Shown: in pieces, positions 10,339 to 34,400 of the stretch
Position numbering within the stretch: the first letter of the stretch is position 1
Layout of the letters: each line of letters opens with the position of its first letter
From: Candidatus Kapaibacterium sp.
Lineage (GTDB): Bacteria > Patescibacteriota > Patescibacteriia > UBA9934
Assembly: GCA_044350705.1 (NCBI GenBank)
Contig: JBILHA010000002.1
Coordinates: 178,295-242,294 of the forward strand
Direction of reading: 5' to 3'
Length of the DNA: 64,000 nucleotides
The notes under the pieces: model-generated
Seen by the model: only the letters and a program-made list of their open reading frames with translations
The model's database searches: none
Told to the model about the DNA's origin: nothing
Program-made: the position numbers and the translations under genes

Positions 10339-10344
10339 TGCTCT

Positions 10345-11144: not shown

Positions 11145-11145
11145 T

Positions 11146-11176
11146 CAAAAAATCTGCCTTACCGGCAGATTTTTTG
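11146..11176. terminator. Bidirectional rho-independent terminator (tRNA-Arg / znuB)
   Basis: AAAAAATCTGCC-TTACC-GGCAGATTTTTT: a perfect 7-bp GC-containing stem with A- and T-runs. Confidence 0.7.
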
Positions 11177-11177
11177 T

Positions 11178-16125: not shown

Positions 16126-18048
16126 TTATGCTTGTTTTTGCTGCTCCGCGAGTGCGCGCTGATATTCTTCTCGCGCACGTTCCTGCTGCAGGATTTGCTC
16201 TGGATTTGTCGTCACAATTTGATCTTCCGTATATGACGCTACCACTTTAATCGCCGCATGCTTCTGTCCGGCGAAAAAGATCCCCTCCCCTACTGCTGCT
16301 TCGAGCAGAAGATACTTCTCACTTTGCGTGAGGTTAAACGTTCGCGCAACCAGATCCACGGCCGCAGGAGATTGTTTCAACAACATCTGGAGAGAAGAGT
16401 TGGTCACAATTGCTTGGCCGTATTGCGAAGTAAGGAAGTCGTTTACATCTTGCGTGATCGTCGTCACACCCAGGTAGTATTTTCGCGCGCGTTTTACGAG
16501 GGCAAAAATGAACTTTGCCGAATCTTCGTTTTGCATGAGCCACCACGCTTCATCAATCACCAACAAACGCTTTTTACGCTCCGAACGTACGACGTTCCAG
16601 ATGTAGTTTACGATGGTATAAATCGCCATGGGACGCAATTCATCTTCGAGGTCGCGTACGGAGAATACGACGAGCTGATTGCGCATTTGTACGGTTGTGG
16701 GAGAGTTCAGCAATCCCGAGAATGTTCCTGACACGTATTTCTGAATACGCGCAACAAGATTCTCCGCCCCCTGCATTCCCTCAAGGATTTGCATGAGGTC
16801 ATCAAGAATAGGATACGCTGCCACTCCTGCAAGCGAAGGAAGGTCAGGAGTAATATCTTTCTTTGCATACGCCTCCAAAAGTGCGCGATCGAGTACGCTA
16901 TCTTCTTCAGGGGTAAAGCCAAGCGTTCCCTTTTCTCCCATGGGCTTCCCGATCATGATGCGAAGCAGTCCCTTGAGCGTAATCACCGCGCTACGCAAGA
17001 TATCGTCTACCGAACTCTCTTCCCCCTTAGGGCGAGGAAGATCAAAAGGATTGATTTTTGCTTCAGACGCCAAGGAAACGTTTACGAATGTTCCGCCTAC
17101 GGCATCGGATAGCTGGCGATATTCCATTTCGGGGTCAATAACAATAACGTCCGTTCCCATCATGAGCGAACGGAGAATTTCGAGCTTTACCGTATAGCTT
17201 TTTCCCGCACCTGATGTTGCAAAGACGACCGAGTTTGCATTCTGCAGAGAAAAACGATCGAATAAAATGAGCGAGTTGTTGTGCCGATTAATTCCGTACA
17301 GGATGCCGTTATCGCTCGATACATCTGAGGAAATAAAGGGAAATGAAGATGCAATCGGTGACGTGTTCATGTTAAACGTAATCATGAGCTCGTCATTGCA
17401 TTCGGGAAGCGTGGAATTAAACCCTTGTTCTGATTGGTAGAATCCTCGCTTCGTGTAAATGAGTTTCGTGCCGAAAATTGCTTCGATTTCTTCAGTGCGT
17501 TTATCTAAATCCTCCTGATTTTTTCCGTATACGGTAACGTAGAAAGCAAACTGGAAAAAGTGCTCGATTCCTTGTGTCAGATCATCACGAAGTTGCTCAA
17601 TATCGCGCAGTGCGGTTTCCTGGATAGGATCACGAGGCTTTCCACTTTCATGATCCGCAACAATTTGCGCTTCGGTAATACCCACTTTGTCACGCAACTG
17701 TTTTAAAATGATTTCTGGTCGGATCGGATAAAAATACATGCCAATATCGATCGTCCCTTTGTAATTGATAATCGGCGCTCCCCATCCTATTCCTACGTAG
17801 CGAGGATAGGTGGTCACAAAAAGCGTACGCAAATACTGATCTCCAAGACGGAGGAAGTTTGGCTGCACTTCAAACGCTGCCGGCGCAATCAGGTCACGGA
17901 TGGATACGGTTCCCCGGCGATAGACACGCTCTTCTTCAAGCGTTGCGCGCTCTTCAGCTAACTTCTGCTCTTGAGGGGACAGTTTCTTTGGAGCAACTGC
18001 AATCTTCTGTGCCTGCTGCCTTTTGAGGTCTTCAATATTAAATGCCAT
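16126..18048 (-). CDS. VirB4/TraC/PrgJ-family T4SS ATPase, C-terminal ATPase portion (split gene)
   Basis: Walker A ATSGAGKSYT, VirB4-type Walker B LLVIDEAWWLM, and RKYYLGVTTITQ (the motif following Walker B). Confidence 0.85.
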   Translation of the reverse strand: MAFNIEDLKRQQAQKIAVAPKKLSPQEQKLAEERATLEEERVYRRGTVSIRDLIAPAAFEVQPNFLRLGDQYLRTLFVTTYPRYVGIGWGAPIINYKGTIDIGMYFYPIRPEIILKQLRDKVGITEAQIVADHESGKPRDPIQETALRDIEQLRDDLTQGIEHFFQFAFYVTVYGKNQEDLDKRTEEIEAIFGTKLIYTKRGFYQSEQGFNSTLPECNDELMITFNMNTSPIASSFPFISSDVSSDNGILYGINRHNNSLILFDRFSLQNANSVVFATSGAGKSYTVKLEILRSLMMGTDVIVIDPEMEYRQLSDAVGGTFVNVSLASEAKINPFDLPRPKGEESSVDDILRSAVITLKGLLRIMIGKPMGEKGTLGFTPEEDSVLDRALLEAYAKKDITPDLPSLAGVAAYPILDDLMQILEGMQGAENLVARIQKYVSGTFSGLLNSPTTVQMRNQLVVFSVRDLEDELRPMAIYTIVNYIWNVVRSERKKRLLVIDEAWWLMQNEDSAKFIFALVKRARKYYLGVTTITQDVNDFLTSQYGQAIVTNSSLQMLLKQSPAAVDLVARTFNLTQSEKYLLLEAAVGEGIFFAGQKHAAIKVVASYTEDQIVTTNPEQILQQERAREEYQRALAEQQKQA

Positions 18049-18052
18049 ATCT

Positions 18053-18754
18053 TTACGTCAGCTTGGTTTCTACGTGGAGCTTTCCAATTGCCTCAAGCGG
18101 CTGCGTTTCTCCCACCTCAGGATTATACGAGTTGTAGTAGAGCTCAATGAGTCCCTGCGTATCCAATTGCGCCACAGATAACCCCATGCTCTCTAATCCT
18201 CCTGCAATGAGCTGCGTTCGTTGCGTGATGGCATACCTCCTATCCTCGAATTGCTTCGCGTTGAGTTTCACGATAGATGCGGGATAAATAGCATTTTGCA
18301 GCTTTACAAAGAAGCCTTTTCCCTTTTCGTTGCCTTCACTGGCATCATACGGTACGACCACAAAAAAACGCTTCTGCATGATTTCTCCTAAATCTACAAG
18401 CTCTTTGATAAAGGAGGTATAGTCTCGAATTTGCGTTTTGAGGAGTTCGTTACTTATCCCTTCCTCTTGTGCCTTTAGACGCGCGAGATATCCATCGATA
18501 TTCATTTTCCTCGATTGGATGCATACCTGCAGAGGATGGTCGAGGCTGTTTAAAAATTGCATGTAGCCCTGGATGACTGCTTGCTGCTCGTCTTCGCTTT
18601 TGAGCGCAAAGTTAATGCTCGATACCATGAGCACCATGCGCATGGTTCCATCTTTCATCACTACCACGTTTTCTCGGATTTCAGCGATGTCCAAATAACG
18701 CTGGGTAGGAGGTCCAGCCTTTGGCCTTGCGAGTGCATTTCTTTGGTCTGCCAT
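18053..18754 (-). CDS. VirB4/PrgJ N-terminal domain encoded as a separate ORF
   Basis: 233 aa ending 4 nt before the ATPase ORF (TAA-AGAT-ATG, different frame). The segment YLDIAEIRENVVVMKDGTMRMVLMVSSINFALKSEDEQQAVIQGYMQFLNSL matches the conserved N-terminal region of Gram-positive VirB4 (PrgJ/TcpF-like) from memory. The summed length of 873 aa equals a full-length VirB4. Confidence 0.6.
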   Translation of the reverse strand: MADQRNALARPKAGPPTQRYLDIAEIRENVVVMKDGTMRMVLMVSSINFALKSEDEQQAVIQGYMQFLNSLDHPLQVCIQSRKMNIDGYLARLKAQEEGISNELLKTQIRDYTSFIKELVDLGEIMQKRFFVVVPYDASEGNEKGKGFFVKLQNAIYPASIVKLNAKQFEDRRYAITQRTQLIAGGLESMGLSVAQLDTQGLIELYYNSYNPEVGETQPLEAIGKLHVETKLT

Positions 18755-18757
18755 ACT

Positions 18758-19213
18758 TTATACCTGAGGGGGAAGTTCATCGTCGCCCTTGTAGACACCG
18801 CCGGTATTTACGATGAGCGTGAGCTCCGAAAGACGGGAGGATTCAAGGGGTGCTTTTCTTAGTTTTTCAGGCGGCTTTTCTTCCTCCACCTTTTTTAAAT
18901 ACACGCGAAGATCCGTATCAGAGAGCGTTTTATCCCACACTCTTTTTGCGGGCTTTTTAATATACTGCAGGAGGTTGAGCACGATATAGTGCAGTGGCTG
19001 GCCATTTACTTTTCCAAAAGCAAACGCTCCTCCGAGTGCGGCGATCGGGATACCAACCGCGAGCATGGGAAGCAGGCTCAAGAAAATGCGGTAGACTAAA
19101 AACTCTGCCACGATTACCCCTACCATGATGAGAAATTGGCGAAGCGTAATCGGGCCAATGATTTTTGGCTCTACATCAAGAAATTGCGGAACGACAAACT
19201 GGGATCGCGACAT
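18758..19213 (-). CDS. PrgI-like (VirB3-like) small membrane protein
   Basis: 151 aa with the N-terminal motif ...VPQFLDVEPKIIGPITLRQF... followed by two TM helices. It lies immediately upstream of VirB4, as in Gram-positive T4SS loci. Confidence 0.5.
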   Translation of the reverse strand: MSRSQFVVPQFLDVEPKIIGPITLRQFLIMVGVIVAEFLVYRIFLSLLPMLAVGIPIAALGGAFAFGKVNGQPLHYIVLNLLQYIKKPAKRVWDKTLSDTDLRVYLKKVEEEKPPEKLRKAPLESSRLSELTLIVNTGGVYKGDDELPPQV

Positions 19214-19230
19214 GCAGGAAGTATAGCAGA

Positions 19231-20982
19231 TTAGAACCGCGTTTTTTCATTCCAACGTGCTAATGCTTGCATCTCTGCAGGGCCCAGACTTTCCTGTCCC
19301 TGCGATCTTCGCCGTGCGGCAATTTCTGCAACCGCGACACCCGTATTCAGCGACTCTCCCATGAGTGTTACGTACAGGGTTGCAAGTGGACTCTTGCGCC
19401 ATGCGAGCACACCCCGTACCCGATCTTCGTAACTCGTTTTTTGTAATGACAAGAGCAGTGCTTCCATTTTTCTCACGGCTTCATCTGGATTTGTAGAAAG
19501 TCGTCGGAAGTCCGCGAGCGTCATGGTTCCTAACTGTTCAACAGGACCCATGAGCTTGTTTCCTGAGACGATATCCGTCACCTTTTTGGGTACGCCATTC
19601 TCCTGTACAGGAGCGACGCTTCCTACCGTTAACTCGACGACTGCTGGTGCAGGCTTTTGAGATTGCTTCGTGAGGGATGCAAATTTTTCCTCGGTTTTCT
19701 TTGCCTCCTGCTCTTCCCAGGCCTGCGCGTCTTCGTCAGTAATCTCAACGCGCACATCCTCTACACGCTTCAGCGCATCTCCCGCCACACGGTACGCATC
19801 TTGTGCCTGCAAGAGCGCCTGCATGAGGAGAGAAAGCTGCTCGCCTTTCACTTTATAGTCGCGTTCAAGAATATCGCGTGTTTGATACTGATCGCGAATA
19901 CCGCGGAGCATTTTTCCAACGATATCTGCGAATGCTGCGGTAGGAATCTTTCCCTCATCCAGAATAGCCTTACTTTTTTCGAGCGCAATATCAATCGCCT
20001 CTGAGAAGGCGACTTTTATGGCTTCATCTTGATTTTTCTTCGCTTTTTCAGCTCTTTTTTTTGCAATCGCTTCAGGCTTCTCTTCAAGAAGTGCCGGCTC
20101 TGACACCCTGTCCTTTTGCAGCGGCAGCGCGATCGATGCACGCTCTGCTTTTTGTCCTTGCTGTCGTTGCTCCTCCTGAATAGGCGAGGAAATCACCGGC
20201 ACTTCTGCCGCCATTTCATGAGAAGGAGGGATTTCGAGTGCGGTCGTGAAGACTTTCTCCTCATTTTTTGAAGATTCCTCAAGAGGCAATTGCTCCTTGA
20301 CCAGCGCCCCACTCTCTTTTTCTTGAGCATCCGCGACAACTTGCTCTTTCATTTTTTGCTTTGCACGGAATTCCTCTTCAGATACAAGCCGAACGCTCCC
20401 AAGCCCCTCTTCTATTACCTGCAAAAGTGTGTCAATTTGCTCTTTTGCAAGCCCTAATCCTCCAATGGTCAGCGGCCTTCCAAAAAAAATCTTTAAACTT
20501 TCTCCTGTTTTTTGTCCGCTCATTCGCTGCTCGAGGAGAAACGCGAGACGCTTCAACAAGAGATCTGAAAATGTAAGTCCGGCTTGGGATACCACTCTTC
20601 TTGCAAAGCTCTCTGCATCAATCATCTCCTTTTCAATGCGCATCCCCTTTTCGTAAAGCGACACATCAGCCCCCCAAATACGAAGCTGTTCCTCTATTCC
20701 TGGGAAAAAATCTTCCAGAGGGAGAAGTCTCAGGGCTGATACTTCCACGGCAAGTTCCTGAGATCTTGCATCGGAAAGATCAAATGCCTCCTTGAGGAGC
20801 CCGGGCACCTCTGCAAGAGGAATCTGCTCATCAAGGACAGCGTCCGTTAGATCAAGCAATTCTCCCACCCTTTCCTCTGGAATTTGATACTTCTGTCCAA
20901 CATCAATAAGCGCATCATAAATGTCGCCATCTTGAAGAAAGTTCCTTGTCGCATCGATATTAAGTAGCGTCGCGAGCGACAT
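19231..20982 (-). CDS. Hypothetical soluble coiled-coil protein (583 aa) in the T4SS cluster
   Basis: Long ORF with no TM segments and Lys/Glu-rich predicted coiled coils. No recognisable catalytic motif. Confidence 0.5.
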   Translation of the reverse strand: MSLATLLNIDATRNFLQDGDIYDALIDVGQKYQIPEERVGELLDLTDAVLDEQIPLAEVPGLLKEAFDLSDARSQELAVEVSALRLLPLEDFFPGIEEQLRIWGADVSLYEKGMRIEKEMIDAESFARRVVSQAGLTFSDLLLKRLAFLLEQRMSGQKTGESLKIFFGRPLTIGGLGLAKEQIDTLLQVIEEGLGSVRLVSEEEFRAKQKMKEQVVADAQEKESGALVKEQLPLEESSKNEEKVFTTALEIPPSHEMAAEVPVISSPIQEEQRQQGQKAERASIALPLQKDRVSEPALLEEKPEAIAKKRAEKAKKNQDEAIKVAFSEAIDIALEKSKAILDEGKIPTAAFADIVGKMLRGIRDQYQTRDILERDYKVKGEQLSLLMQALLQAQDAYRVAGDALKRVEDVRVEITDEDAQAWEEQEAKKTEEKFASLTKQSQKPAPAVVELTVGSVAPVQENGVPKKVTDIVSGNKLMGPVEQLGTMTLADFRRLSTNPDEAVRKMEALLLSLQKTSYEDRVRGVLAWRKSPLATLYVTLMGESLNTGVAVAEIAARRRSQGQESLGPAEMQALARWNEKTRF

Positions 20983-20990
20983 ACGTTTGT

Positions 20991-23867
20991 CTAAGTCATG
21001 TATCTTTCAGCGGCATTGTACGAACTACGGAGTCCACGAAGGCGCTTTATCTCGTCCGCAGAACTTGCCGTCGTTTCATGCACGCGAAGTGCAGCGCCGA
21101 TGGTACTCATCGCATCTTTTATCGCTGCTTTTTTTCCTGCATCCGTTTCTTTTCTCATCATCTCCGCCAGCTTGTTGAAATCTTCCTTTGAAAGACCGTC
21201 CACAATCGTCTTTGAGAAGTCGTTTCTCGCACCTTTCACTACCGCATCGCGAATCGCATCCTGCATGTGCGCCACAGAAGAAGGGTCCGCTTTCATAAGT
21301 TGCTGCACCTTCATGCGCTCATCTCGTCCAATATTCATGGATGGGTTTGTTGCAGGATTTGTGTCAACGCCTGGAATAATATCGGGAATGGTTTTCCCTG
21401 CCCCCAGAAGCTTCTGACGAATTGCATTTGCATCATCAATACTAATTCTTCCTCCTGCAGCCTCCATTGCCGCGAGCTGTGCTTGGATTTGGCTTTGCGT
21501 TGCCGCATTCATTTTTGAGAAGTCTGCCTTCGATTGTGCGAGCGCCTGAATTGCTTTATCAGCGTTTGCATTTCTTGATGAATCGAACATGGCGTCATTC
21601 AGCTGTCCTTCGCTGACTTGGCCATTCTCAAACGCTCTGCCGATATTCTCTACACTCTGCGTCTGCATGACATTCGTCACAAACTGCTGCTGCACCGAAG
21701 CAGCAGTAACCCCCGGAGGTCGTCCTGCCTTTGCCGCAGCCTTTGCTTCAGCATCGATTTGTTCTTTTGCAAGATTACTTACATCTGTTTTTCCTTCAAT
21801 AATTGCCTGAATAACGCTTGCCTTGCCTACATCAGTCGTCGTTAAATGCGCAGACGCCTCTGTGGTCTTTGATCGACCATATGTTCCTCGATTCAATTCA
21901 TCGAGTTTACTGACCTTCTTTCCACTTTCATACTTTGATGTCGCTCGACCCATTGCGTTTAGAACAGTTTCATCAGCAGCAGCCTGTGAACGCAAAAGGC
22001 GTCCGTTGAAATCTTCTGAATCGATGAATTTTTCTGCCTTACTCTTATCTACCTTTGCATAGAGATCCGCATATTGTGATCGTGCCTTATTCCATGCTTC
22101 TTTATCTATTGGTCGGTCATGCTCATGTTTATCAAAGTCACTCAAGGTGCTCTGTACGATTTCATCAAACTTCTCTTTGCCCACCTCCTTTTCTAAGGCT
22201 TTTGCAAAATCCTTATTCGTAAATAATTCTCCCCGAAGCACCTTCGCATCGGCTAAAATGTCATTTGAAATAGCGCCCGTTCCTGTCGCGGACTTCATCA
22301 ATCGAGATACCCTTTGCGCATCGGTCATGTGTGAAACGCGATCCTTTGCTGCTTTTTTCTCCTTTTCATCAAAACCATGCAAACGTGCATCAATCGAAGA
22401 GCCCGCCGACAAGAGAAGATCTGAACCCGTCGCAGCTCCTGCGGCACTCACAATATTTCCTGCGCGTTTCGCAATTTTCTTACCTCCAATGAGCGAAGAT
22501 TCGAGAGGGCTTTCTGCCACCTGCAGTCCACGCGTAGCGACCCCAGCTGCTTTCTGCGTTAAGTTGCCCGTGCGTTGTAAGAAAGCGTTCAGCCGAGGGC
22601 TGCTCCCTGCGAACATATTGGACCTTCCCAACATTCCTCCCGCTTTTCCCGCCAATTGACTGCCAACTCTTGCCCCCGTAACAGGTAAAGCAAGGGCTCC
22701 TCCAGATATTTTCCTTCCCAGAGAAAGCGCGCGGCGACCGGTCTTTTCATTGAGCGCCATTGCGGCGAGGCCTCCCATTTTTGACGCGATTTTCGCCGAC
22801 TCACGGATACCCATGAGTAAGAAGACGATCGCAATAAGGAGACCGGTGAAGTTGGTGGATTCGAAAATTTCGAGCGTGATTTGTCCGTAGGTTGTACGTT
22901 CTTCTGGCTCTGGGAATGCCTCTGCCTTTGCGAGGTGACCGTTTGAAGATGCGGCAAGCGCCAAATACAAGAAAAATGCGAGCATCGGGCCAAGGATGAG
23001 CGGGGGGACAAATCCCTGCACCCATTCATTCCACACGCGACCCAACCACTTGATGATATCCATGGACCCCCAGGAGAATCCTGCGAAAGGCGCCATGATA
23101 AATGCAATCCAGAGCATGATGATGCGCCAGATGAACGCTACGGCAAGCAGCAAGATGACGATCATCACCGCTACCTGCACCATGAGTTTTACGTAGGCGT
23201 TTGCAATGTTCGATGCCAATGTCACCAGCGTAATTCCCGCCTCAGACGCTCCTTGAAAAGTCGCCGAAGAGTACGTGGTTGCTTGCGGCATGACCATGAG
23301 CTGCGCAAAGTTTCCGGCCGCAATACTCATGAGCGCGTTTACGAACGTCATCATGACGATTTGACTTGCGTCTACAGCAAGACCGCAGATGGTTCTACTA
23401 AAGTTTGCAAAAACGATACCTAAGAAGAATCGAGGAAGGTGTTGCTGCCAGGCGCTACTTCCCTGCCCAACCATCGTTTTTACCGCCAAAATCAAGAGCA
23501 CAATGACCGCAAACATGTTTACCATGTCGCGCGTGAGCGTCCATCCGAGTGTGACGATGCTTGAGCTTGAGAAATTGTTGTAACTGAGGACATTGACGAC
23601 GATCACCTCAATGATCACGAGCGTGAGCGAACCAATCGCATCACCGATGAAGTTGATAATCTGCGCGAGGACGTTTCCAATCCACATGACCAAGCTGTTC
23701 GCCCAGGTGGATTCCTCGGGAGTTTCATATGCGGCATGCGCGATATCTGGTACCACCGCATGCATAAGCATGCCCATGCCAACAAAAAGACCAAGCACAA
23801 GTGCCGTGGTCCCTACTTTACGGAACAACCGACGCATCCCTCCAAACATATGGGAATAGTGTAGCAC
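20991..23867 (-). CDS. Polytopic membrane protein with a long hydrophilic C-terminal extension; candidate VirB6/TcpH/PrgH-like T4SS channel component
   Basis: 958 aa with about 8 TM helices in the first ~400 aa, then a ~550-aa Ala/Lys-rich coiled-coil tail (TcpH-like architecture). The start is GTG at 23867 or ATG at 23849. Confidence 0.5.
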   Translation of the reverse strand: MLHYSHMFGGMRRLFRKVGTTALVLGLFVGMGMLMHAVVPDIAHAAYETPEESTWANSLVMWIGNVLAQIINFIGDAIGSLTLVIIEVIVVNVLSYNNFSSSSIVTLGWTLTRDMVNMFAVIVLLILAVKTMVGQGSSAWQQHLPRFFLGIVFANFSRTICGLAVDASQIVMMTFVNALMSIAAGNFAQLMVMPQATTYSSATFQGASEAGITLVTLASNIANAYVKLMVQVAVMIVILLLAVAFIWRIIMLWIAFIMAPFAGFSWGSMDIIKWLGRVWNEWVQGFVPPLILGPMLAFFLYLALAASSNGHLAKAEAFPEPEERTTYGQITLEIFESTNFTGLLIAIVFLLMGIRESAKIASKMGGLAAMALNEKTGRRALSLGRKISGGALALPVTGARVGSQLAGKAGGMLGRSNMFAGSSPRLNAFLQRTGNLTQKAAGVATRGLQVAESPLESSLIGGKKIAKRAGNIVSAAGAATGSDLLLSAGSSIDARLHGFDEKEKKAAKDRVSHMTDAQRVSRLMKSATGTGAISNDILADAKVLRGELFTNKDFAKALEKEVGKEKFDEIVQSTLSDFDKHEHDRPIDKEAWNKARSQYADLYAKVDKSKAEKFIDSEDFNGRLLRSQAAADETVLNAMGRATSKYESGKKVSKLDELNRGTYGRSKTTEASAHLTTTDVGKASVIQAIIEGKTDVSNLAKEQIDAEAKAAAKAGRPPGVTAASVQQQFVTNVMQTQSVENIGRAFENGQVSEGQLNDAMFDSSRNANADKAIQALAQSKADFSKMNAATQSQIQAQLAAMEAAGGRISIDDANAIRQKLLGAGKTIPDIIPGVDTNPATNPSMNIGRDERMKVQQLMKADPSSVAHMQDAIRDAVVKGARNDFSKTIVDGLSKEDFNKLAEMMRKETDAGKKAAIKDAMSTIGAALRVHETTASSADEIKRLRGLRSSYNAAERYMT

Positions 23868-24096
23868 AAATCCTTTGTGTCATTCCGACGACAGGAGGAA
23901 TCTCTTCCCTTTCATTCATTTACACTTCCCATGTTTGAAAGTAAGGGTTCTTCAACGCAATAAGCGCATATTTCTTTTGTCTTCTCCATTTCTTTAATTC
24001 TTTTTCTCGAGCAATGGCAGCGTGTACATTTGCGGTTGATTCAAAGTAGGGAATTTTTTATGAATGGATCTGAAGGAGATCGCTCCTACCGTCGGG

Positions 24097-24182: not shown

Positions 24183-24215
24183 GTCGTCACTTCTCCCTGT
24201 GAGATACGCAAGACG

Positions 24216-24242
24216 CCTGGGAGAGCAGAACGCTCTCCCAGG
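24216..24242. terminator. Strong hairpin (11-bp perfect stem) downstream of the M23 peptidase gene
   Basis: CCTGGGAGAGC-AGAAC-GCTCTCCCAGG; weak flanking U-tract. Confidence 0.45.
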
Positions 24243-24273
24243 CGCACGATTCTTCTCTTTCGGACAAGAAGAA

Positions 24274-26022
24274 TTATTCCTCGATCACGACCCGCAGTCC
24301 GCAGCCACTTGACGTGGGATCATCGGCGGCGACCACCGACTGCGCATGTCCGTTCCAGGTTGCAGCTACCGTTCCCTGGATGGTTCCGGGCGGAAACGGC
24401 CCCAGGCAGGACCAGCTTGTCGTACCAGAGATGACGTACTCCACCGAAAAGCGGAGTGCGTCGCCCGGTTCCATGACGCGACGGTAGGTGAGGTGGGAGG
24501 TATCTGACCCCTCCGCAAGCACCCCCACCCAGCTCCGCGGATCACCACCCGCGGGGGTGAACTCCCCCGAGAGGGTGATGCGGCTTGCCGTCGCCGCATC
24601 TGGCGTTGTCCAGGTGAGCACGAGCTCCCTCTCTTCCTCGATGTCGGTCTCCGCCGGTGCTTCTTCTTCCTCTTCCCGCGTTTCTTCTTCCTCAGGCGGA
24701 TCACCCGCGCTCTCGTAGGCTCCTCCCCCAACCGCAGCACCGCCGCAGGTGGTGATCAGAGACTCGGTGAGGCAGGAGATGCCCGTCGCACAGCTCCCGC
24801 GCACGGTCACGATGCTCTCGAACTCGCTCCGCTCCACTTCGAGCACCGTTCTTTCCCAGAACCCCATGAGCAGATAGACGCTCCACGTCTCGATGGGCAT
24901 CGCAACACCATCGCTCATGAGGTACACGTCGCTTGCATCGGCCGGAGAGATGAGGCTTCCATCGCGGTAGCGCGCGTTGCCGCTGTGCACCGGATAGTCG
25001 CCAAGATCGTCGGAGAGATCGGACGCCTGGAGCAGGTCATCGTACGTCGCGGCGCTCATGCCCCACGACTTCACAACCCCCTGCCAGCCGAGCGTACCGA
25101 TCTTCTGTCTCGCACGATACTCATCGCCGCGCGTTCCCATGAGAAGCCACACGCCGGTTCCGCCTTCGTCGTCGTACACCGCGCGCACTGCGGACGCATC
25201 TCTCAGGCTCTCGCCTTCTTCGAAGCAGGAAAGCTCCTCGGGGGAGACGAGCGCAACATGCGCGAAGTCGTAATTGCGGGAGGTGAAGGCGCTCTCGGTC
25301 ACGAACACGCGCCTCTTCCCTTCTTCGATGAGGTACACCGCGCTCTCGAAGGGCGTCTTCACGAGCGTGCCGTTCGGGTGCCAGCGCGGCACAGGAAGGG
25401 ACGACTCGTACCGATGACCGGACGTGAGATCGCAGATCATGCTCGTTACCGGCGTTGCCTGTGCCGGCGTTCCCCGCGTGGCATTGCGCGCGAAGAACTC
25501 GAGCCCCTCCTGCGAGATTCCCTGGACGCCGTCGTCCGCTGCATCTCCCCAGTGACGGCCGATATGCAGATGGTCTCCCGTGGAGTTCCCCGTCGTCCCT
25601 TCGATTGCGATGATCTGGCCCGCCACCACTTCGCTCCCATCCTCCACAAAGATGTCGGACAGGTGCGCGAGGATGATATAGGTACCGTCACCGAGATCGA
25701 TGTTGATGTGCAGACCGAAGTTCGTCGTCGAATTGCGGTCGTGCACGTACGCCACGCCCGCGACCGGCGCGTACACCAGATCGTCGGCGTCGTTGGGGGT
25801 GTCGAAGTCCACGTCGTAGCGCGTTGCGGTTCCCCGGTGGGAGTAGCTCCCTCCGGTCCCCTGGCTGCAGCGGTAGCTCTCCCCTTCGGCGAAGGGCAGA
25901 TGAACCGTCACCGCGTCACGCCCTCCCCCGCCGATTCCGGTGTCTTCAGGAATGCTCAGCGGCGGCAGCGGCGAACAGCTACAGAAAAAAAGTACGAGGA
26001 GCGCACAAATAATGAAGGTCAT
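24274..26022 (-). CDS. Secreted/lipoprotein M23-family metallopeptidase with a large C-terminal domain; high-GC gene
   Basis: Signal MTFIICALLVLFFCSCS. The M23 motifs are HRGTATRYDVDF and GNSTGDHLHIG (G-x-STG-x-HLH). An acidic linker PPEEEETREEEEEAP is present. GC is about 65% versus about 45% in flanking genes. Confidence 0.75.
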   Translation of the reverse strand: MTFIICALLVLFFCSCSPLPPLSIPEDTGIGGGGRDAVTVHLPFAEGESYRCSQGTGGSYSHRGTATRYDVDFDTPNDADDLVYAPVAGVAYVHDRNSTTNFGLHINIDLGDGTYIILAHLSDIFVEDGSEVVAGQIIAIEGTTGNSTGDHLHIGRHWGDAADDGVQGISQEGLEFFARNATRGTPAQATPVTSMICDLTSGHRYESSLPVPRWHPNGTLVKTPFESAVYLIEEGKRRVFVTESAFTSRNYDFAHVALVSPEELSCFEEGESLRDASAVRAVYDDEGGTGVWLLMGTRGDEYRARQKIGTLGWQGVVKSWGMSAATYDDLLQASDLSDDLGDYPVHSGNARYRDGSLISPADASDVYLMSDGVAMPIETWSVYLLMGFWERTVLEVERSEFESIVTVRGSCATGISCLTESLITTCGGAAVGGGAYESAGDPPEEEETREEEEEAPAETDIEEERELVLTWTTPDAATASRITLSGEFTPAGGDPRSWVGVLAEGSDTSHLTYRRVMEPGDALRFSVEYVISGTTSWSCLGPFPPGTIQGTVAATWNGHAQSVVAADDPTSSGCGLRVVIEE

Positions 26023-26651
26023 GGGCCGACGTCTCCGGAGATGAAACGATGATTCGTTTCTTTTCCCCTTGCAGAGGGAGTCCCAAAGGAACTGCAAGGG
26101 AAACCGGAGCGCAGCATATGCCCTGGGGTAAGGACTCCCCTCCTTACCCCTTTATTTATTAAGTATGGAATGCTGTTTGCCCGGCTGTCGTTTTGAAAGC
26201 GCGTTTTTTGGTACCCGCTTTCAGGGCGATCAGGCGCGCGTTTGTCATTCCTGCAGACACTCACGAACGTTCCTTCAAGGTCGTGCCCGAACTCGTCGGT
26301 CGTTCTGCTTCCATATCACCATAAAAAAAGAAGTCTTCAAGTAAAAACCTTTAAAAACTCTTCTCTTTTTTGCGCGTTTTCGTTTCTGGTATCTTTTTTT
26401 CTTTTCATTGTCAGAAAACAATGAACAGCTTTTTCGCAAAACATCTCTTTGAAGCGATGCGTTGTCCCCTCTCCAAAAACACCGTGGGAAAAGCTGTCAG
26501 GAGTGCAAAAACTGTGGATAACCTACAAAAAACACGCCCCTTGCAATGGGCGTGTTTCCTCTCTCTTGAAGCTCGCGTATACGCCCCTCCTGGCCTCCCC
26601 GATGGGGAGGATCTCGGTGGAAACTCCCCTGACTCACCCGAGACGCTTTCA

Positions 26652-27020
26652 TTACTTTCCCTGCAAACGCTTTACTTCTTCGTGAATACGCCCCACTACA
26701 CTTTCCACATCTTGAAATACTTCCTCATTCTTTATTCTCATCACGTGAAATCCCGCTCCTATGAGATAGGCCTCACGCTGCATGTCATAAATTCGATGTC
26801 CAAGTTTTTCATGAATTTTTCCATCGATTTCTATTACCAAACGGAGCGGCCAGAAACAAAAATCAACAATAAAAGGACCTATGCCGTGCTGCCTACGGCA
26901 CCTTACTCCGAGCGCATCGTGCGAAAGATGACACCAAATCACCCTTTCCGCCTGAGTCATCCGCTTTCTCAATTCTCTCCGTCGCTCTTTACTCCTCGCG
27001 GGATTGATGAGTCTTTTCAT
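26652..27020 (-). CDS. DUF559 endonuclease-domain protein (Vsr-like / PD-(D/E)XK fold)
   Basis: 122 aa with ...QAERVIWCHLS...GVRCRRQHGIGPFIVDFCFWPLRLVIEIDGKIHE..., matching the DUF559 pattern. Confidence 0.7.
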   Translation of the reverse strand: MKRLINPARSKERRRELRKRMTQAERVIWCHLSHDALGVRCRRQHGIGPFIVDFCFWPLRLVIEIDGKIHEKLGHRIYDMQREAYLIGAGFHVMRIKNEEVFQDVESVVGRIHEEVKRLQGK

Positions 27021-27320: not shown

Positions 27321-27455
27321 TAGCGCTGTCTAGGCATCTCCTGCGGCGCAAGCCGAGGTGAGAAGCCAAAACACGTACCTTAAACAACACCACCCCACCC
27401 ACCCGGTAAGTGCCGGGAAAGGTGTCGTGGGCAGTCCATGAGTAAGGAGAGCGCC

Positions 27456-28205
27456 ATGCGCATCTTGATTCTGGCCGCCCTGCTGGGCGGCTGCGGGGGA
27501 TCCTCCCCCGACCTCGCCAACGGCGAGGTCGGCAACGACGGCAACGACACCAACCCGGATGACAAGACCGGCAAGGCCACCCTGTCCTACACCGTCTCGG
27601 TGATGGGCAAGGTCGAGCCCTGCAAGATCAACATCGAGTGCGAAGACATCGACCTGCTGACGGTCTCCTCCGGAGAAATCGTCGAAGTCGATGTCCCCGC
27701 CTCGTGCGTGATCTCTGCGGGTCTCCTGGACTACACCGACATCTTCGGGTACCCCGTCCACCTGGGCGAAGATGGCGAGTACTGGGCGGCAACCCCGCTC
27801 ACGCTCGACCTCGAGCCCCAGGACGAAATCCTGGATCAGTTCATCACCTTCAACGTCTTCGAGCCCGGCTACTACGACTGCGAGTACGACAAGTACGAGC
27901 TGGATGAGTCCGCCGGAGATCTCAAGGGCGAGCAGTGGATGGAGGACCATCCGGTGGACGAGCAGTTCATCGAGGTCGGCCAGGACGGCATCGTCGAGAT
28001 CGAGGGCAACAACGAAACCCTCGATGTCGTCGGTGGACCCCAAAGCCACCTGCAGACGGTCGACGACGGTCTCGTCCTCGTGGTGGCTGGTGAGGAAATC
28101 CCCTACTACATCGCCGAGTCCGACATCGGCGTTGACAACTTCTCCCTCACGGTGGTCAACACCGAGTTGGGACATGTGTCCGACGTCCGGTGCGAGCTGG
28201 ACTAG
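27456..28205 (+). CDS. Acidic lipoprotein of unknown function; high-GC gene
   Basis: Lipoprotein signal MRILILAALLGGC (lipobox LGGC) and a strong SD AAGGAG 7 nt upstream. GC is about 65%. The antisense 355-aa ORF is an artefact of the high GC. Confidence 0.7.
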   Translation: MRILILAALLGGCGGSSPDLANGEVGNDGNDTNPDDKTGKATLSYTVSVMGKVEPCKINIECEDIDLLTVSSGEIVEVDVPASCVISAGLLDYTDIFGYPVHLGEDGEYWAATPLTLDLEPQDEILDQFITFNVFEPGYYDCEYDKYELDESAGDLKGEQWMEDHPVDEQFIEVGQDGIVEIEGNNETLDVVGGPQSHLQTVDDGLVLVVAGEEIPYYIAESDIGVDNFSLTVVNTELGHVSDVRCELD

Positions 28206-28410
28206 GCGTGGGTGGGGGTCGCGTACCCCCGGTTCCGCAGCAGCGGGGCCGGGGGTCGCATCTTTTTTTGGGGAAGTAAGGAGTGAAAGGAAGGGTGAAC
28301 TTTTTATACTATTTCGTGTGGGAACGTTGGATTCCGGGTCCCCTCGGAGACCTCGGGGCAATGCAAGTCCGGAATGACAGAGCTCCAATCGGAACACCTA
28401 TCTCTAAATC

Positions 28411-28439: not shown

Positions 28440-31400
28440 TTACGGAGTTACCGTGATGACTCCATCGTACTCCACCCAAGGATTTATCGAGGAGTTTTGT
28501 TCTGGGTAAATTCCGTATGAACACTCGCTGTAATCCATTGTACTGGACGCATTGGCATCGTTGTACATTCCCACAAAGCATCCGCCTGGACTTGTCGTTC
28601 CATAGCTTGAAGTGCTTGATTCGATTGCGTTTCCATCCGTACATGTTCCCGTACACCAGCCCCAGTTGTCGCGGACGTGGACGCGGGGACGGAAGACGCA
28701 GGAATCTGCGGCATCGTCACCGGTTTCGTCGATCGCACAAGGGAACTCGTCGTATTCGCCGTCGCCATCGGTATCATCACAGCGGTCGCCACGAAGTACT
28801 TCTGATGTACAGGTATAGACGTGGTTGTAGTTGAAGTAGTACGGATCGCAGCTTTCATCGGTAAGACCCCATTCAGAATCAAGGTCACATTTTGATTCTT
28901 GCTGGCCGTCCTGCAAACCACGAGCGTTCTTGAAGTAGTTCTCGTCGTCATCTGATCCGGTTTGCATTCCGTCTCCCCAGTCAATCATGACCTGACGGAT
29001 AGGAAGCTGGTTCTTGTCTGCGGCCGCGTAGAACTTAATCGTCGCATTGAAGAACTGAATTCCGGATTGATCACCTGTTTCTTGACCGTTGAGGGTAATC
29101 GCACTCTGCGTTCCTTCTTCACACATAAGGCCGTCACTTGAACACGAACCGACATCGACCGCCCATACCGTTGGCGGAACTCCTTCTGCCGGACGGACGT
29201 CGTACGCTTCATCATCTGCATCATAGTCTGCCCATAGACTCGTCTCCGTAGGAAGAACGGAGAAATAATCTCCTACATCTTCCCAATCACCATCTATATA
29301 TTCTCGTTCACCTGTAAAGTCACCCTTCCAGATCCATAGGGCAGCATCTGCTACCGAAGCGAATACTTGCGTAATTGATTCAAGCGAGTACTGCAGTGGC
29401 TCTGAAGTCGCCGTATAGAAGTAGTATGAGGATGTATCTGATACGTATGCGTACGGATGTCCATCCCATCCATATCCCACACCGTCCCAGCTTCCTGTAA
29501 AGGTGAATGGAATATATGAGCGTGCTTGTAACAGCTCAGATGCAGGATCACCTAAGGTTCCTACGTCAGGATATCCGCTTGGGCACGAATCAAATGTAAC
29601 TCCCGTCGCAATCGTAATGTCGTCTCCTCCGTGATAGTTATCTGAGCACTGCGCTACATAGAATGGCGCTTCGTATTCCTGAACCGGCTTATCGAGATTG
29701 ATAGCGCCAAATATGCCTGGGGTTGTTTCTTGATTGTATTCAACATTGGAAGACAGGTCTGACTGCAGCGTATGTCCATTGTAAACACGATCCGTCCATG
29801 CATACGATCCTTCGTCATCAGATGAAACCTGCACTACTACAGAACATGCAATATTTTCATCCATAGCATCATGGAATCTGTCTGCATAGATTTCAGGAGC
29901 GTTCATCCAAAGATTTCGGTATCCGGTTCCTCCCGATGAGGACTCCGTATCGTCTGCACCGTCGCTTTGTGGATAGTCCGTAATATCTAGCACGTCATAG
30001 AAAATATCCGCCTCTGCGTATTCTCCTCCACGCATGTAAATACCGCGTACTTTACAGTCCTGATAATCATCTGCAACCGTGTCGAAATGACCGTAGGTTC
30101 TCTCCTCTGAATCGCTACTTCCGCTGCTCGTATCTCCTCCTCCTTCTTTTGGATTGAGCGATGCATACCAGACACGCGTTCCGTCATTACTCGTACCTTC
30201 ATTGGATATTCGACTATCTTCGCTTGGGTCACAAGACTCATAGTCGTACTCCACTTCCCCATCGCTTTCTACATATTTCGCAGAGTTCTCAGGAACGCAT
30301 ATATACGGACAGTCATTATCTCCCACGCCATCCCTACACGTATCAGCTGAGTAGTTATTACTCACTCCCGCACCACGGGCACGTGCTCCCATGATCGCAA
30401 AGAATCCCTCCGGGCAATGCACCGCCTGATCACAGGCCGCATCACTCGTGCTCCACGCATCCTCATCGTTACCCACACTACTATCATCACTCTCCGCACA
30501 TGCAACACCCTCCGTATATCCATCTTGAATTACGCTGCTTGGCGAAGGGGTGATCGTTGAGAATGCCTGTACGTCTGCACACATGTAAATATCTTCGAAG
30601 AATCCCGCGCTTGCGTACTTTGCCTGCAAGTCTGTATCTCCCTGTAGGCGGTCAACCGGCAACCAAGAGATACACGCCTGCTTTGTACGGTCGCCAAGGA
30701 TATTGAGCGACGTATCTTTCTCGAGACAGAAGCCATTCAAGCCGTAGATTACGTCTTCTCGGGTGGACTTTGCACAGGTCGATCCATCTCCACACTGCTC
30801 GTCTTCCGTGCAGTATCCTCCTGAACGCTCTCCACCCTGACATACACCCAATTGATCAGCTACCGCAATACAGGATCCGGATTCGCATGTGCTTCCATCA
30901 GTACATATTTCCCCTGCATCCGTATCCGCCTCTTCCTCACCATCTCCATCAAGATCACCTCCACAAATCGAGAATTCTGGATCCCAATCTTGGTTGTAGT
31001 ATCTCGTTTCCATCCCTTCTCCGAAGCTCACCTTGGTGTACGAACAGTCACATACTTCCCCATATGCACACGCTTCAACGTTCTCAAATCCCGAGAGAAG
31101 ATCGTAGGGCAATGCATCATACGTAGGATCGGTGTCAATCGTTCCTTGATCCGAAGGGTCATACCACGCTTCAACAACTTCATTTGGGAATGGACTCGTT
31201 CCCTCTGGGTATGCGCGACAAATCTTTCCTTCAGTAACGCCGTTTGCGTACGTTTCACCATCAGGCGTCAGCAAACACTTGCTATTGATACATGATCCGA
31301 GTTTGAGTTCGGCAGCGGGAATGAAGGTTTCTGCAGAGCTACAGGTGCTCGCTTCTGCGGTTTCACTATCGTAGTCTTCGATCGCCACGTCATTACCTAC

Positions 31401-34400
31401 TTCTGCACACGTACCGCTGTAACACGTTTGACCTTCTGAACAATCAGCTGCGGTCTGACAGAGTACCGGATTTCCACTGGCATCTTCGTCGAGGTCGTAA
31501 CATGCGCCAACAATACAGTCACCATCGCCGCATTGGTCGCTTGAAGCACATGCGGCACCGTTTGACGAGCAGTACCCCACTGCACACGCATTGCCATAAT
31601 CTTCCGAACAGCTTCCGGCATCAAGAACGAGCGCGTAGTCAACCTCATCAATGAGTCCTGCGGCTTCCGTCGCCTCTGGAGACATACAAATACCCGAACC
31701 CGCCATACATGCCTCTCCCACGGCTTCACACGAGGAGTCGCTGGCAAGCGAGGGGGAAGCTGTACTCGCACCATATACACAATATGCAATCGGGCTTACA
31801 TCAGCTTGACTCAGCGACTGCACGGGGAATAAATCAGGAATCGCCATGCCCGAGTATTCATTTCCATACCAAGAGGTATCGCGTGAGGCATACCACTCCT
31901 TATCAAAGAGCACATCTGGCTCTTCCATGTCCCACTCTGCGCAGGAGGAAGTTCCGGTTGTTGCATCGTAGTCGGTACAGAGCTCGATATCGGTACACGT
32001 GTTGATGAAGCTTGCGGTATCTTCGTCCCAACGTGGGTTATCGCTTGCACAGGCAAGCCATTCTGAACATGCACGGTCGCGATTTACTTTCAATACCGTG
32101 TTTACATCATTTTCTTGGCGAGGCACCCAATCGAAGTTTGCATTGAGTTCATCTTCCATCCATGCGCTAAATCCAAGCGATCCAAAAAGTCCTGGATCAA
32201 CACGTACCTGGGTTCCACACGTTACCGCTTCAACACTTCGTCCAGATTCACTTTCAACCAATGCACAGTCCGTAGAATCTACACAGGAGCCACCGAATAC
32301 GAAGAGGTCATCTCGATCGTAATCCCCCCCAAACGAGAGTTCGCTTGCGAGCTTTGCTCGATAGGTATCTCCATCGGTTAAATCGTATACCTCCCCGTAG
32401 TCATAAATACAGCGCGTAGCACAGAGGTCAATTTCAAGACCATCCGACGTGGTAATCGTTGTATCTCCCCCATTCTCACAATCGATAGGATCGACCAACC
32501 CGTATGGCTCGGTACCAAACAATTCATCAGCATGACGACTCGATACTTCCGTTGCAGAAGCATTTGCCGTAAGTGAGGTGCTGGACGTGTCATAGAACAT
32601 GGCACACCCGTTCTTGAGCGACACTTGTCCATCACACTTTTGACTATCCGAAAGGCCGTATTCACTTAGGGTGTCGTTGTTGAGATAGAAATAAGATGTT
32701 CCGTCGCTCATGCCGTAAATCTCCCCATCATCTTGCGCGAGGGTGTCCTGGAATTCGCTACAGGTGTCATAGGTTGCGTCACATGTTCCTGCCCAGCCGC
32801 CAAATCCAGCATCTCCGTTCTTCCAAATACCAGACTCATCCCCTCCAATGACATACGAAGGATTCTGCGCATTACAAGTCTCCCCCGATCCACAATCCGC
32901 GCTACTTCCACATGCATCTCCTTCATTTCCCCCGGAATCTTCACACGTTCCGTAACAGAAGTCCTGCGTTCCTTCGCGGAACCATCCGGTGTATCCCACC
33001 CCGTCTATCGTGACATCCGTGCGGTATTCACACTTTTGATCAAGCGGGTGCTTAAAGTAATACGTTGCCGCCTGGTTGGTTGTGAACGCATCACAGAAAA
33101 GCTCTTCATGGGCGCAGAGCGTGCTGTCGTATTCATCTGGAAGATTTAAGAAGTACACACTTTCTGCACCGTCCGTACTATTACGATCTTGATTCCAGTC
33201 TGGATCACCGAATTCTGTACATCCTGCAGCGGAAGCAGAGCACGTTACCTCGTCGGTCACCACCAAGAACATTGCCTGGTCTGCAGGCACGATGGTTGTT
33301 TCCGGTCCATACGAAACGGCAGTTTCGCCAAGTCCCCAAGCAGGCGTGAAGCCATCCATTGAGAAGAGACAGGAAGATTCACCTACCGCAATCGTACAAA
33401 GGTATGGCGAAGCCTCGTCGAAATCTGCCGAGGATTCATAGAAGTAATAACACGCGGTTGCCGATGTTGCAGTATCCGGCTCACTGTCTCCATCGTCGTC
33501 GATATTGTTACAGGTTGCGTTCACAGTTTTTGCCGTGTGACTTGCGCTTTCCTGGGTCTTGAAGAAGGCGTCGCATCCTACTTTGTCTTCATCACAGAGT
33601 GAGCTAAAGCTCTTGAGATACTCAGTCTCATCGTCTTGCGTCGTGTATTCCTGACAACCCAAGTAATACTGCGGGCTTGCATCTCCCGTGACCGATTGAT
33701 CGCACGACGCAGGGGTTACCCAAGAATCTCGGATCACCGTGATATTCTCCTCACCCTCTCGGAGAACGATATTGTCGACATATGCCGAACCCGTAGGCAC
33801 GAGCACAAGCGACGTACCCTCACCAAAACGTGGGTAATCCTCCGCATCCATGACGAGCGGTCCGAGAGTAATTTGCTGCCATCCGTCTTCAAGCTCTACT
33901 GCGCTATCAAATGCGAGATCAATAGAAGGAGATGAAGGATCTGCCTCAAAGTCAAAGCCTACCTCAAGCGTACCCGTTCCCTTTGCGACCACACTTACCG
34001 TGTAGGTTTTTCCGGCAAAGAGTTCGTTATGCAGCGTTCCGCAATAGCCATCATTCTCCGCTATCGTACATTCTCCACCAAAACTGAGCGCCGTACCCGC
34101 ACATCCTCCTTCGGTCGTACAGGTTCCCCCGTTATCTGCGATAAAGGAAGTGACCGGTCCGGTCATGAGCATGGAGTGCCCATCAGAAGCAAGTGATTCG
34201 TTACTGTAGGTCGCATATGAAGCTGATGCCGCATCCCATTGATTGAGCGTTCCGCTTTCAAAGATTTCTTCGAGCACTAAACGACTATTTCTGCTTCGAC
34301 CTCCTGCGTATGCACGACAACCGTTTGCCGAGGCATCACACGAGGTACTTTCTTCTGGGTAGCCGTAATAGCGACACTCTCCCGAGTCTCCCACGTAGTA

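Follow-up and report, generated by a model that had tools for sequence, protein, structure and literature searches.

An M23 peptidase gene that stands beside a type IV secretion system (T4SS)-like gene cluster is markedly richer in G and C than its surroundings in the 64,000-nt stretch of DNA analyzed here (contig JBILHA010000002.1 of assembly GCA_044350705.1, positions 178,295 to 242,294; hereafter the window). A comparison with related loci indicates that this gene most likely encodes a native, vertically inherited wall hydrolase of the T4SS-like locus with a maintained synonymous GC excess, and not a foreign protein. The genes on which this reading is built are as follows.

24274..26022 (-), including the stop codon: coding sequence (CDS) of the M23/LytM-type peptidase, 582 aa, GC 0.633, GC at third codon positions (GC3) 0.762, defined from the open reading frame (ORF) list, Pfam PF01551, the family alignment and composition
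16126..23867 (-): T4SS-like cluster with a 958-aa polytopic membrane protein, a 583-aa protein (p583), a PrgI/VirB3-like protein, a TraC-like 233-aa protein and a VirB4/TraG-type ATPase, GC3 0.46-0.53, defined from Pfam and synteny
27456..28205 (+): GC-rich gene for a small lipoprotein (MRILILAALLGGCGG...), GC3 0.875 on the 255-aa ORF 27438..28205, with AAGGAG just upstream of the ATG at 27456
42831..43382 (+): gene for a membrane-anchored LysM-domain protein, GC3 0.88, defined from Pfam LysM and composition

The 200-nt GC profile lies at 0.60-0.665 across ~24250-26000 and drops on either side, in a window with an overall GC of 0.499. The remaining 43 ORFs of the window have a mean GC of 0.491 (sd 0.026) and a mean GC3 of 0.479 (sd 0.041), against which the M23 CDS stands at z = 5.5 for GC and 6.9 for GC3. 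The GC jump at ~24200-26100 described in the original prediction is real, although the background from which it rises is ~50% GC and not 45%. Among 600-nt windows, GC values of at least 0.58 are confined to just three stretches in the 64 kb, which correspond to the M23, small lipoprotein and LysM genes; the two further high-GC genes that had been pointed out at 27456..28205 and 42831..43382 are indeed the only other such stretches. The full ORF of the M23 gene, 24274..26097 (-), encodes 607 aa and is longer than the CDS, whose start codon is most probably the ATG at 26022 because the family alignment begins there and a GGAG lies 10 nt upstream. An antisense ORF of 355 aa overlaps M23, and another of 355 aa overlaps the small lipoprotein gene. 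The antisense open length scales with GC3, which agrees with the earlier attribution of these ORFs to GC3-rich codon usage.

A search of 5.8 billion proteins reveals 126 relatives of the M23 protein. The 120 matches listed are full-length Peptidase_M23 proteins of ~470-880 aa, mostly 550-640 aa, and the named sources among them are exclusively Patescibacteria or Candidatus Uhrbacteria. A genome scan with one genome per species yields 80 M23 loci, and all 80 belong to metagenome-assembled genomes (MAGs) of Uhrbacteria/Patescibacteria. No actinobacterial or other relative from outside the Candidate Phyla Radiation (CPR) is found in either the protein search or the scan of the genome collection, and the scan of viral contigs contains no M23 homologue. 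The actinobacterial origin proposed in the original prediction therefore does not hold: the best homologues lie in lower-GC CPR genomes, an outcome that the prediction itself had set down as counting against a foreign origin. The Saccharibacteria-type epibiont invoked there fares no better, since the VirB4 protein of the window is 86-88% identical to that of Uhrbacteria MAGs, which indicates that the source is Uhrbacteria-like (Candidatus Uhriibacteriota, Parcubacteria group) and not a member of Saccharibacteria. Many TPA_asm MAG records (L004-L009, L014-L017 and others among the loci of the scan) are titled "uncultured Gammaproteobacteria bacterium" and carry the Uhrbacteria-type locus, in which VirB4 reaches up to 88% identity with the VirB4 of the window; these titles look like placeholders or errors.

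The M23 gene sits 406 nt upstream of the T4SS-like cluster on the same strand, at the place where a dedicated wall hydrolase had been expected. Within 10 kb of M23, the gene for the polytopic membrane protein is found in 64/80 loci, p583 in 58/80, VirB4 in 55/80, and the end of a giant gene (its C-terminal part) in 45/80. In 29 of 48 loci the nearest neighbor by M23 is also the nearest neighbor by VirB4, and the agreement between VirB4 and the membrane protein is identical. M23 identity climbs monotonically with VirB4 identity, and positive outliers (z > 3) account for only 6 of 1128 pairs. In light of this nearest-neighbor agreement and of the covariation of identity with VirB4, the M23 gene is native and has been vertically inherited with the T4SS-like cluster in Uhrbacteria-type Patescibacteria; it was not "inserted" beside the T4SS operon, as had been supposed. 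An M23-specific transfer among Uhrbacteria was also considered and is ruled out, as the nearest-neighbor and residual analyses both show co-divergence with VirB4. Among the features expected of an acquired island, atypical composition is present, whereas donor-lineage homologues, a patchy presence and gene-tree incongruence are not, the agreement of M23 with VirB4 being as good as that of the native membrane protein.

The GC excess is likewise shared by the relatives. In 68 loci, the GC of M23 is on average 0.104 above that of the remaining locus, and in 61 of them the difference is larger than 0.05. Its mean GC3 is 0.70, compared with 0.47, 0.47, 0.48, 0.50, 0.50 and 0.44 in six conserved neighbors, and M23 is the higher in 91-100% of loci. 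When M23 GC3 is regressed on neighbor GC3, a slope of 0.94 and an intercept of +0.24 are obtained (r 0.75, n = 60), with a mean offset of ~+0.22 in GC3 and a mean logit offset of 0.97. The offset is present in 26 of the 27 members of the VirB4 cluster that contains the closest relatives of the window, and its absences are scattered elsewhere. In L086, the closest relative, M23 GC3 is 0.81 against 0.50. L001/L004 carry an M23 that is 56% identical to that of the window and has a GC3 of 0.76 in a locus with a GC of 0.49, together with a small opposite-strand gene of GC3 0.81, whereas in the GC-rich relative L003/L015 (locus GC 0.61) M23 reaches 0.95 against ~0.82 in its neighbors. Sister species whose background has shifted by 0.2 keep the offset (0.86 versus 0.56 in L016, 0.62 versus 0.36 in L017).

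Orthologues that are merely 40-60% identical, in hosts of quite different GC, thus exhibit an equal kind of GC excess, which a recent acquisition cannot explain. In the closest species pairs, four-fold sites are already 41-49% different, so that an unmaintained GC relic should have vanished. At the end of the CDS the excess is +0.12 over the last 100 nt and -0.01 over the first 100 nt past the stop codon (n = 66-70). The GC excess is a maintained, gene-specific and CDS-confined synonymous bias that has persisted while host GC3 drifted between 0.3 and 0.8 and synonymous substitutions came close to saturation. Other GC-rich islands also occur in Uhrbacteria loci, at L047 4683-6758, L063 5292-6476, L042 1493-2362, L051 5541-6479 and L071 5224-6210; their products are all unrelated (a Ser/Thr kinase with an extracellular domain, an aminopeptidase-like protein, a sulfotransferase-like protein and ~300-aa secreted proteins), which suggests that GC-rich outlier genes may be a wider feature of Uhrbacteria genomes.

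The small lipoprotein and LysM genes share the inherited GC3 excess of M23. The small lipoprotein has no Pfam match, and tblastn matches are obtained in 5 loci. With iterative hidden Markov models, its relatives can be traced to the GC islands of 18 further loci, where each lies upstream of M23 and on the strand opposite to it, and the direct homologues have a GC3 of 0.72-0.92. The small lipoprotein gene and M23 form a divergent pair that is separated by an islet of variable content. The protein evolves fast, and its gene has a GC at second codon positions (GC2) of 0.34 and a GARP fraction (Gly, Ala, Arg and Pro) of 0.20 versus 0.26 in the background, which indicates that the bias acts on synonymous sites and not on all sites. 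Directly past this gene, the terminator scan identifies one further element.

28225..28256 (+): terminator-like hairpin of 14 pairs (11 G-C) followed by a T-rich stretch

The LysM protein has 3 homologues among the 5.8 billion proteins. Its orthologue in GCA_009921885.1 is 75% identical and has a GC3 of 0.86 beside a GroEL gene at 0.51. In L084, a relative with DNA 93-96% identical to the window, the LysM gene is split by an ISL3-family insertion (10001-11742; L085 1-428).

The product of 24274..26022 (-) is predicted to be a membrane-tethered, lipoprotein-type zinc M23/LytM peptidoglycan endopeptidase, with the following regions.

25975..26022 (-): signal peptide and putative lipobox (MTFIICALLVLFFCSC), residues 1-16, hydrophobic and ending in Cys16, from the family alignment
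25438..25917 (-): M23/LytM catalytic domain, residues ~36-195
24739..25437 (-): middle region, residues 196-428, with repeated alpha/beta modules and no family assignment
24634..24738 (-): acidic disordered linker, residues 429-463, with a predicted local distance difference test score (pLDDT) < 50 at 431-462, a length that varies in the family and a GC3 of 0.54-0.59
24277..24633 (-): C-terminal beta-sandwich, residues 464-582, with a conserved Cys and Trp

The Pfam family PF01551 (Peptidase_M23) matches residues 96-183 of the 607-aa ORF with 53.7 bits, against a cut-off of 28.7, and profile matches in the PDB include Csd1/2, zoocin A, LytM and lysostaphin. The M23 domain adopts the LytM type of beta-fold and is followed by ~390 extra C-terminal residues. 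Cys16 is invariant across the family alignment, and the predicted structure consists at this end of a helix at residues 2-14 and then a low-confidence linker. These features bear out the earlier description of a secreted or lipid-anchored LytM-type M23 protein with a large C-terminal extension. Within the catalytic domain, A-H120-L and H151xH153 are invariant in the family and align with the canonical motifs. The middle region is probably a wall-binding or spacer module. Peptidase_M23 is the only Pfam family found in the protein, and structure searches reveal no resemblance to SLT or CHAP domains. A GC-rich stem-loop without a U-tract can be read from the sequence 32 nt past the stop codon.

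24216..24242 (-): stem-loop CCUGGGAGAGC-GUUC-UGCUCUCCCAGG

This stem-loop, which is not among the matches of the terminator scan, is possibly a terminator or a 3' stabilizer.

The M23 gene is preceded by a conserved RNA structure, which is supported by alignment, a covariance model and fold energy.

26023..26113 (-): structured 5' leader RNA with two hairpins

The leader contains a 12-bp hairpin that carries an invariant ACUCCC in its loop and a 6-7-bp hairpin with a conserved AAUYNN loop, which are followed by a likewise conserved CUCC, a GGAG Shine-Dalgarno sequence and the AUG. When the upstream regions of M23 from the window and its close relatives are aligned, compensatory changes are observed in both hairpins, and corresponding sites are present at L004 9909-10003, L086 770-862, L006 9905-10000 and in 15 further loci. 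A covariance model seeded on five sequences, rebuilt on eight and used to search 1.4 Mb gives 22 matches, of which 19 are on the coding strand and directly precede an M23 gene. In an 18-row alignment, which was fitted to the leader model and whose values are to be read with that fit in mind, 89.6% of the paired cells can pair, compared with 58.7% in shuffles and 45-51% in slid controls; changes on both sides are observed in 17 of the 18 leader pairs, and the covariation score of 0.745 (versus 0.233) is reached by 0/500 shuffles. In the window, the leader has a fold energy of -49.8 kcal/mol (z -4.9), and both the Shine-Dalgarno sequence and the AUG are paired in this fold. An outer helix between the 5' flank of the leader and the Shine-Dalgarno sequence can be drawn in the window, L086 and L006; across 17 leaders it is no better than chance (median z -0.1) and was rejected. 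Rfam 15, whose searched copy presumably includes the M23 RNA motif, gives no match on the strand of the leader, with limits of E <= 5 for the window and E <= 1 for 11 related loci. The leader model has no matches upstream of the small lipoprotein or LysM genes, and an Rfam scan of the LysM region yields chance matches alone. With its covarying structure, its fixed position in the 5' untranslated region (UTR) and its association with one gene family, the leader has the general properties of a structured cis-regulatory RNA and probably regulates M23 translation in cis.

The synonymous sites of the three GC-rich genes provide information on the kind of bias involved. G/C-ending codons are enriched in every degeneracy class, with both G3 and C3 raised, and the GC3 excess is uniform across the domains of M23. 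Four-fold divergence in the two closest pairs is 0.31-0.32 in M23 versus 0.41-0.49 in its neighbors, and it is below that of most neighbors in 8 of 9 close pairs. In 48 M23 orthologues with GC3 > 0.6, GGGGGG occurs once where synonymous shuffles predict 45, and C-runs are depleted too; Shine-Dalgarno-like AGGAGG/GGAGGA is strongly depleted inside the M23 CDSs, as expected of a resident gene. No strongly enriched hexamer that could represent an uptake-type or Chi-like repeated motif is present in the M23 orthologues. As regards a strand asymmetry, which was considered as an explanation, G3 equals C3 on average in the M23 orthologues, and 24 of 26 lipoprotein-like genes favor C over G at four-fold sites. 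The mRNAs of the GC-rich genes fold at -44 to -51 kcal/mol per 120 nt, compared with -27 to -35.

Three more specific causes were tried and rejected. Native mRNAs do fold better than their synonymous shuffles, yet those of GroEL do likewise, which indicates that structure beyond composition is not specific to these genes. Classical translational selection is not apparent, as the codon pattern is unlike that of GroEL and an Akashi-type test is not significant. The enrichment of NAC, which would be the signature of a queuosine-type effect on NAY codons, is no stronger than that of other codon classes. The data fit a weak gene-specific fixation bias toward G/C, with a population-scaled strength of ~1. 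A search of the literature for GC heterogeneity in Uhrbacteria or CPR bacteria returned nothing relevant.

The gene order around M23 is conserved and runs from a giant protein through the small opposite-strand gene, variable small genes, M23, the membrane protein, p583, PrgI and the TraC-like protein to VirB4. In the window, VirB4 is followed by a 190-aa protein, a ComFC-like protein and a Zn ABC transporter. The neighboring features are the following.

14903..15577 (-): ComFC-like protein (double zinc ribbon and phosphoribosyltransferase), one gene past the VirB4-like ATPase, after the 190-aa ORF
26652..27020 (-): DUF559 endonuclease-like gene, GC 0.45 (Pfam PF04480, 99 bits), in the islet of variable content that separates M23 from the small lipoprotein gene
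28440..37808 (-): giant 3122-aa, Cys-rich and very acidic secreted protein from the ORF list, with an ordinary GC3 of 0.46

Orthologues of the giant protein have 3001-3094 aa and CBM_4_9 matches, and the protein is a candidate surface adhesin. In other genomes, the equivalent islet contains PemK, HicAB, a 23S_rRNA_IVP/bAvd-like four-helix protein, GIY-YIG, a Y1 transposase, or an RHS/SpvB toxin with small downstream genes. The islet is a variable insertion site, and its genes in the window, L001, L003 and L086 are all AT-rich relative to their hosts. On the other side of M23, the spacer toward the membrane-protein gene reads at 23920-24060 (-) as the C-terminal remnant of a GIY-YIG nuclease (..AIAREKELKKWRRQKKYALIALKNPYFQTWEV*), and L003 has an intact GIY-YIG gene at this position. 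The ComFC-like gene, which is found in an identical arrangement in L003, hints at a link of the T4SS-like cluster with DNA uptake. On an Uhrbacteria contig near the M23 locus, L014 4003-4195 (+) gives a sub-threshold group I intron match (43 bits against a gathering score of 50, E 1e-7).

Several explanations other than native inheritance with a maintained bias have to be weighed. A recent transfer from a high-GC actinobacterium, as first proposed, with the product being a wall hydrolase derived from the host or aimed at it, would account for the atypical GC and GC3 (z 5.5-6.9) and for the mobile-type genes close by (DUF559 and the GIY-YIG remnant). However, these neighbors are themselves AT-rich and differ between genomes, no actinobacterial homologue is found while all named matches are CPR/Uhrbacteria, and the gene is orthologous and syntenic in 64/80 loci, co-diverges with VirB4, shows an equal GC excess in orthologues 40-60% identical and is preceded by a conserved native leader, all of which makes such an event very improbable. 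An assembly or binning chimera, in which a high-GC fragment was joined into a lower-GC contig, could likewise produce the sharp GC steps at both ends of M23. The steps coincide with the start and stop codons, though, and the conserved leader ties M23 to its upstream region; moreover, the protein is 100% identical over 94% of the query to one on a separate Joint Genome Institute (JGI) contig, and the same gene, neighbors and GC step recur in more than 60 independent assemblies from different projects, so that a chimera is very unlikely. Equally little weight can be given to a functional overlapping antisense gene that constrains third positions and thereby raises GC3. The long antisense ORFs over M23 and the small lipoprotein gene (355 aa each) could be taken for such genes, but their open length scales with GC3, they are broken at differing places in the orthologues, the antisense ORF shows the GC1 > GC3 > GC2 pattern typical of a shadow frame, and the identity of the antisense "protein" is below that of the sense protein.

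An ancient transfer from a high-GC donor into the ancestor of Uhrbacteria, with the excess as a slowly ameliorating relic, is improbable, if less so than a recent one. It would be compatible with the parsimony-polarized four-fold changes in M23, of which 171 are from G/C to A/T (S>W) and 68 in the reverse direction (W>S), implying an equilibrium below the current GC, and with the several lineages that lack the offset, in which amelioration could be complete; in addition, beyond the generic M23 domain the family has no detectable relatives outside CPR. However, with four-fold sites 41-49% different in the closest pairs and VirB4 identity down to 65% in the family, erasure would be expected many times over, and the offset tracks host GC3 with the slope of 0.94, including high-GC hosts in which M23 stands at 0.95. 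The neighbors are also S>W-heavy (657 versus 491), which is a known bias of parsimony, and the per-site S>W is lower in M23 (0.16 versus 0.24), which indicates that G/C is actively retained. The polarization is not decisive in any case because four-fold sites are too saturated, the method being biased at such levels.

GC-biased gene conversion, with M23 and the small lipoprotein gene serving as homology arms that flank the islet or with surface genes undergoing frequent allele exchange, is unlikely on balance; conversion at the borders of the variable islet is nevertheless a serious rival. The two GC-rich genes do bracket an islet of changing content (toxin-antitoxin modules, DUF559, GIY-YIG, Y1 transposase, RHS), the LysM gene is an insertion-sequence target in a close relative, competence-type genes such as the ComFC-like gene are present, and the bias is not codon-specific (G3 and C3 are both up) and lacks an Akashi signal. 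On the other hand, the excess is gone less than 100 nt past the stop codon, it is shared neither by the adjacent membrane-protein gene nor by the 3' end of the giant gene, the latter having the lowest GC3 observed (0.44), and no repeated uptake-like or Chi-like motif is found. The divergence of M23 tracks that of VirB4 without a surplus of anomalously similar pairs, its synonymous divergence is lower and not higher, and the amino-acid composition of the lipoprotein, although it evolves fast, is not shifted by GC. That the excess stops sharply at the CDS boundary, leaves adjacent genes unaffected and does not alter amino-acid composition speaks for selection on the CDS or its transcript rather than for gene conversion. 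The most likely source of the bias, at somewhat less than even confidence, is thus weak selection of this kind, whereby a GC-rich, strongly folded mRNA would affect stability or translation rate.

Native inheritance with a maintained GC excess has its own difficulties, and the following observations weigh against it or against the function assigned to the protein. The offset is lost or absent (below 0.25) in 9 of 60 loci, and the S>W surplus in M23 implies an equilibrium GC of 0.58, below the current 0.78 though above the 0.48 of the neighbors, which could mean slow decay. Compared with the pattern [LVI][ASTVI][GAS]C, the lipobox of the window reads F-C-S-C, with atypical residues at -3 and -2, whereas most family members have x-G-C. 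The canonical HxxxD motif reads D70xxxD74 (both residues are invariant, as is H62), so catalytic activity is not assured. Finally, the proposed functional link of the M23 protein to the T4SS comes from synteny.

The M23 protein probably acts at the T4SS-like locus in the manner of the VirB1/PrgK/TcpG class, by local cutting of peptidoglycan cross-links in the cell's own wall or in that of a partner, which would let the T4SS-like apparatus be assembled or used. The two-hairpin leader would control translation of M23, and the GC-rich folded mRNA would tune the stability or translation of wall-active proteins that are potentially self-damaging. It is a possible but rather unlikely extension of this scheme that selection on the transcripts holds M23, the small lipoprotein and LysM genes ~0.2-0.4 GC3 above the genome, and that GC content forms a heritable, tunable layer of expression control by way of mRNA stability, folding or decoding rate, together with a hitherto undescribed leader RNA that gates the translation of the hydrolase serving the T4SS-like apparatus.

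Atypical GC is routinely taken as evidence of horizontal gene transfer (HGT), and here it would give the false story of a host-derived weapon. The compositional anomaly is instead inherited: the orthologue lies ~10 GC points (22 GC3 points) above the genome in dozens of species, which suggests that synonymous sites in these reduced and uncultured bacteria are subject to a force specific to the gene, and counsels caution toward composition-based HGT calls in CPR genomes. A transfer event would have been less unusual than a GC excess that is lineage-wide, bounded by the CDS and common to two or three genes associated with the wall. Additionally, a conserved accessory set of the Patescibacteria T4SS-like system can be defined, composed of the M23 hydrolase, the giant surface protein and the small lipoprotein, and the leader adds a new candidate riboregulator in front of a wall hydrolase gene. 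The accessory set and the leader should both help in understanding how these cells breach cell walls.

Conjugation systems of monoderm bacteria encode dedicated wall hydrolases, such as PrgK (pCF10), TraG (pIP501), TcpG and CwlT. In contrast to these proteins and VirB1, the M23 protein of the window lacks the SLT and CHAP/NlpC-P60 domains that are the active modules there, and has most of the M23 catalytic residues, two unrelated C-terminal modules and a chromosomal, non-conjugative context. Since Peptidase_M23 is the only Pfam family present, with no SLT or CHAP domain, a functional likeness to the VirB1 class is proposed here, and not homology. In Patescibacteria, canonical VirB1 is seldom linked to virB4, and other hydrolases have been proposed as substitutes (PMC12102498). 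In the saccharibacterium Ca. Southlakia epibionticum ML1, virB4-adjacent peptidase and lysozyme genes are essential for epibiotic growth, as summarized in PMC12102498. Judged from that summary, both organisms have a T4SS-like locus of Patescibacteria in which accessory enzymes that degrade the wall stand in for canonical VirB1; the likeness is one of position and enzyme type, S. epibionticum belongs to a different Patescibacteria class, and no compositional anomaly is known to have been reported for its genes. Compared with active M23 proteins (LytM, lysostaphin, Csd3, ShyA) and with degenerate LytM factors (EnvC, NlpD, SpoIIQ), the protein of the window has a DxxxD first metal motif and an extra invariant His upstream, and its domain partners are unique to the Uhrbacteria family.

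The M23 RNA motif and the lysM RNA motifs are candidate cis-regulatory RNAs in the 5' UTRs of M23 and LysM genes (Weinberg et al. 2017, PMC5737381). The leader of the window is likewise structured, covarying and located in the 5' UTR of an M23 peptidase gene, but it consists of two hairpins with an ACUCCC loop and has no Rfam 15 match. Like genomic islands acquired by HGT, the M23 gene has a GC content and codon usage far from those of the host and mobile-type genes close by; unlike them, it is orthologous, syntenic and co-diverging across a phylum-level lineage, with an anomaly that is inherited and scales with host GC. A further parallel is the gene-specific heterogeneity of codon usage or GC3 that arises in bacteria from translational selection or GC-biased gene conversion, where a modest population-scaled bias (~1) could also yield such an offset; in the present case, in contrast to highly expressed or generally recombining genes, two or three envelope genes only are affected, by a very large ~+0.2 to +0.4 GC3, with codon preferences that are not those of GroEL and with a sharp end at the boundary of the CDS.

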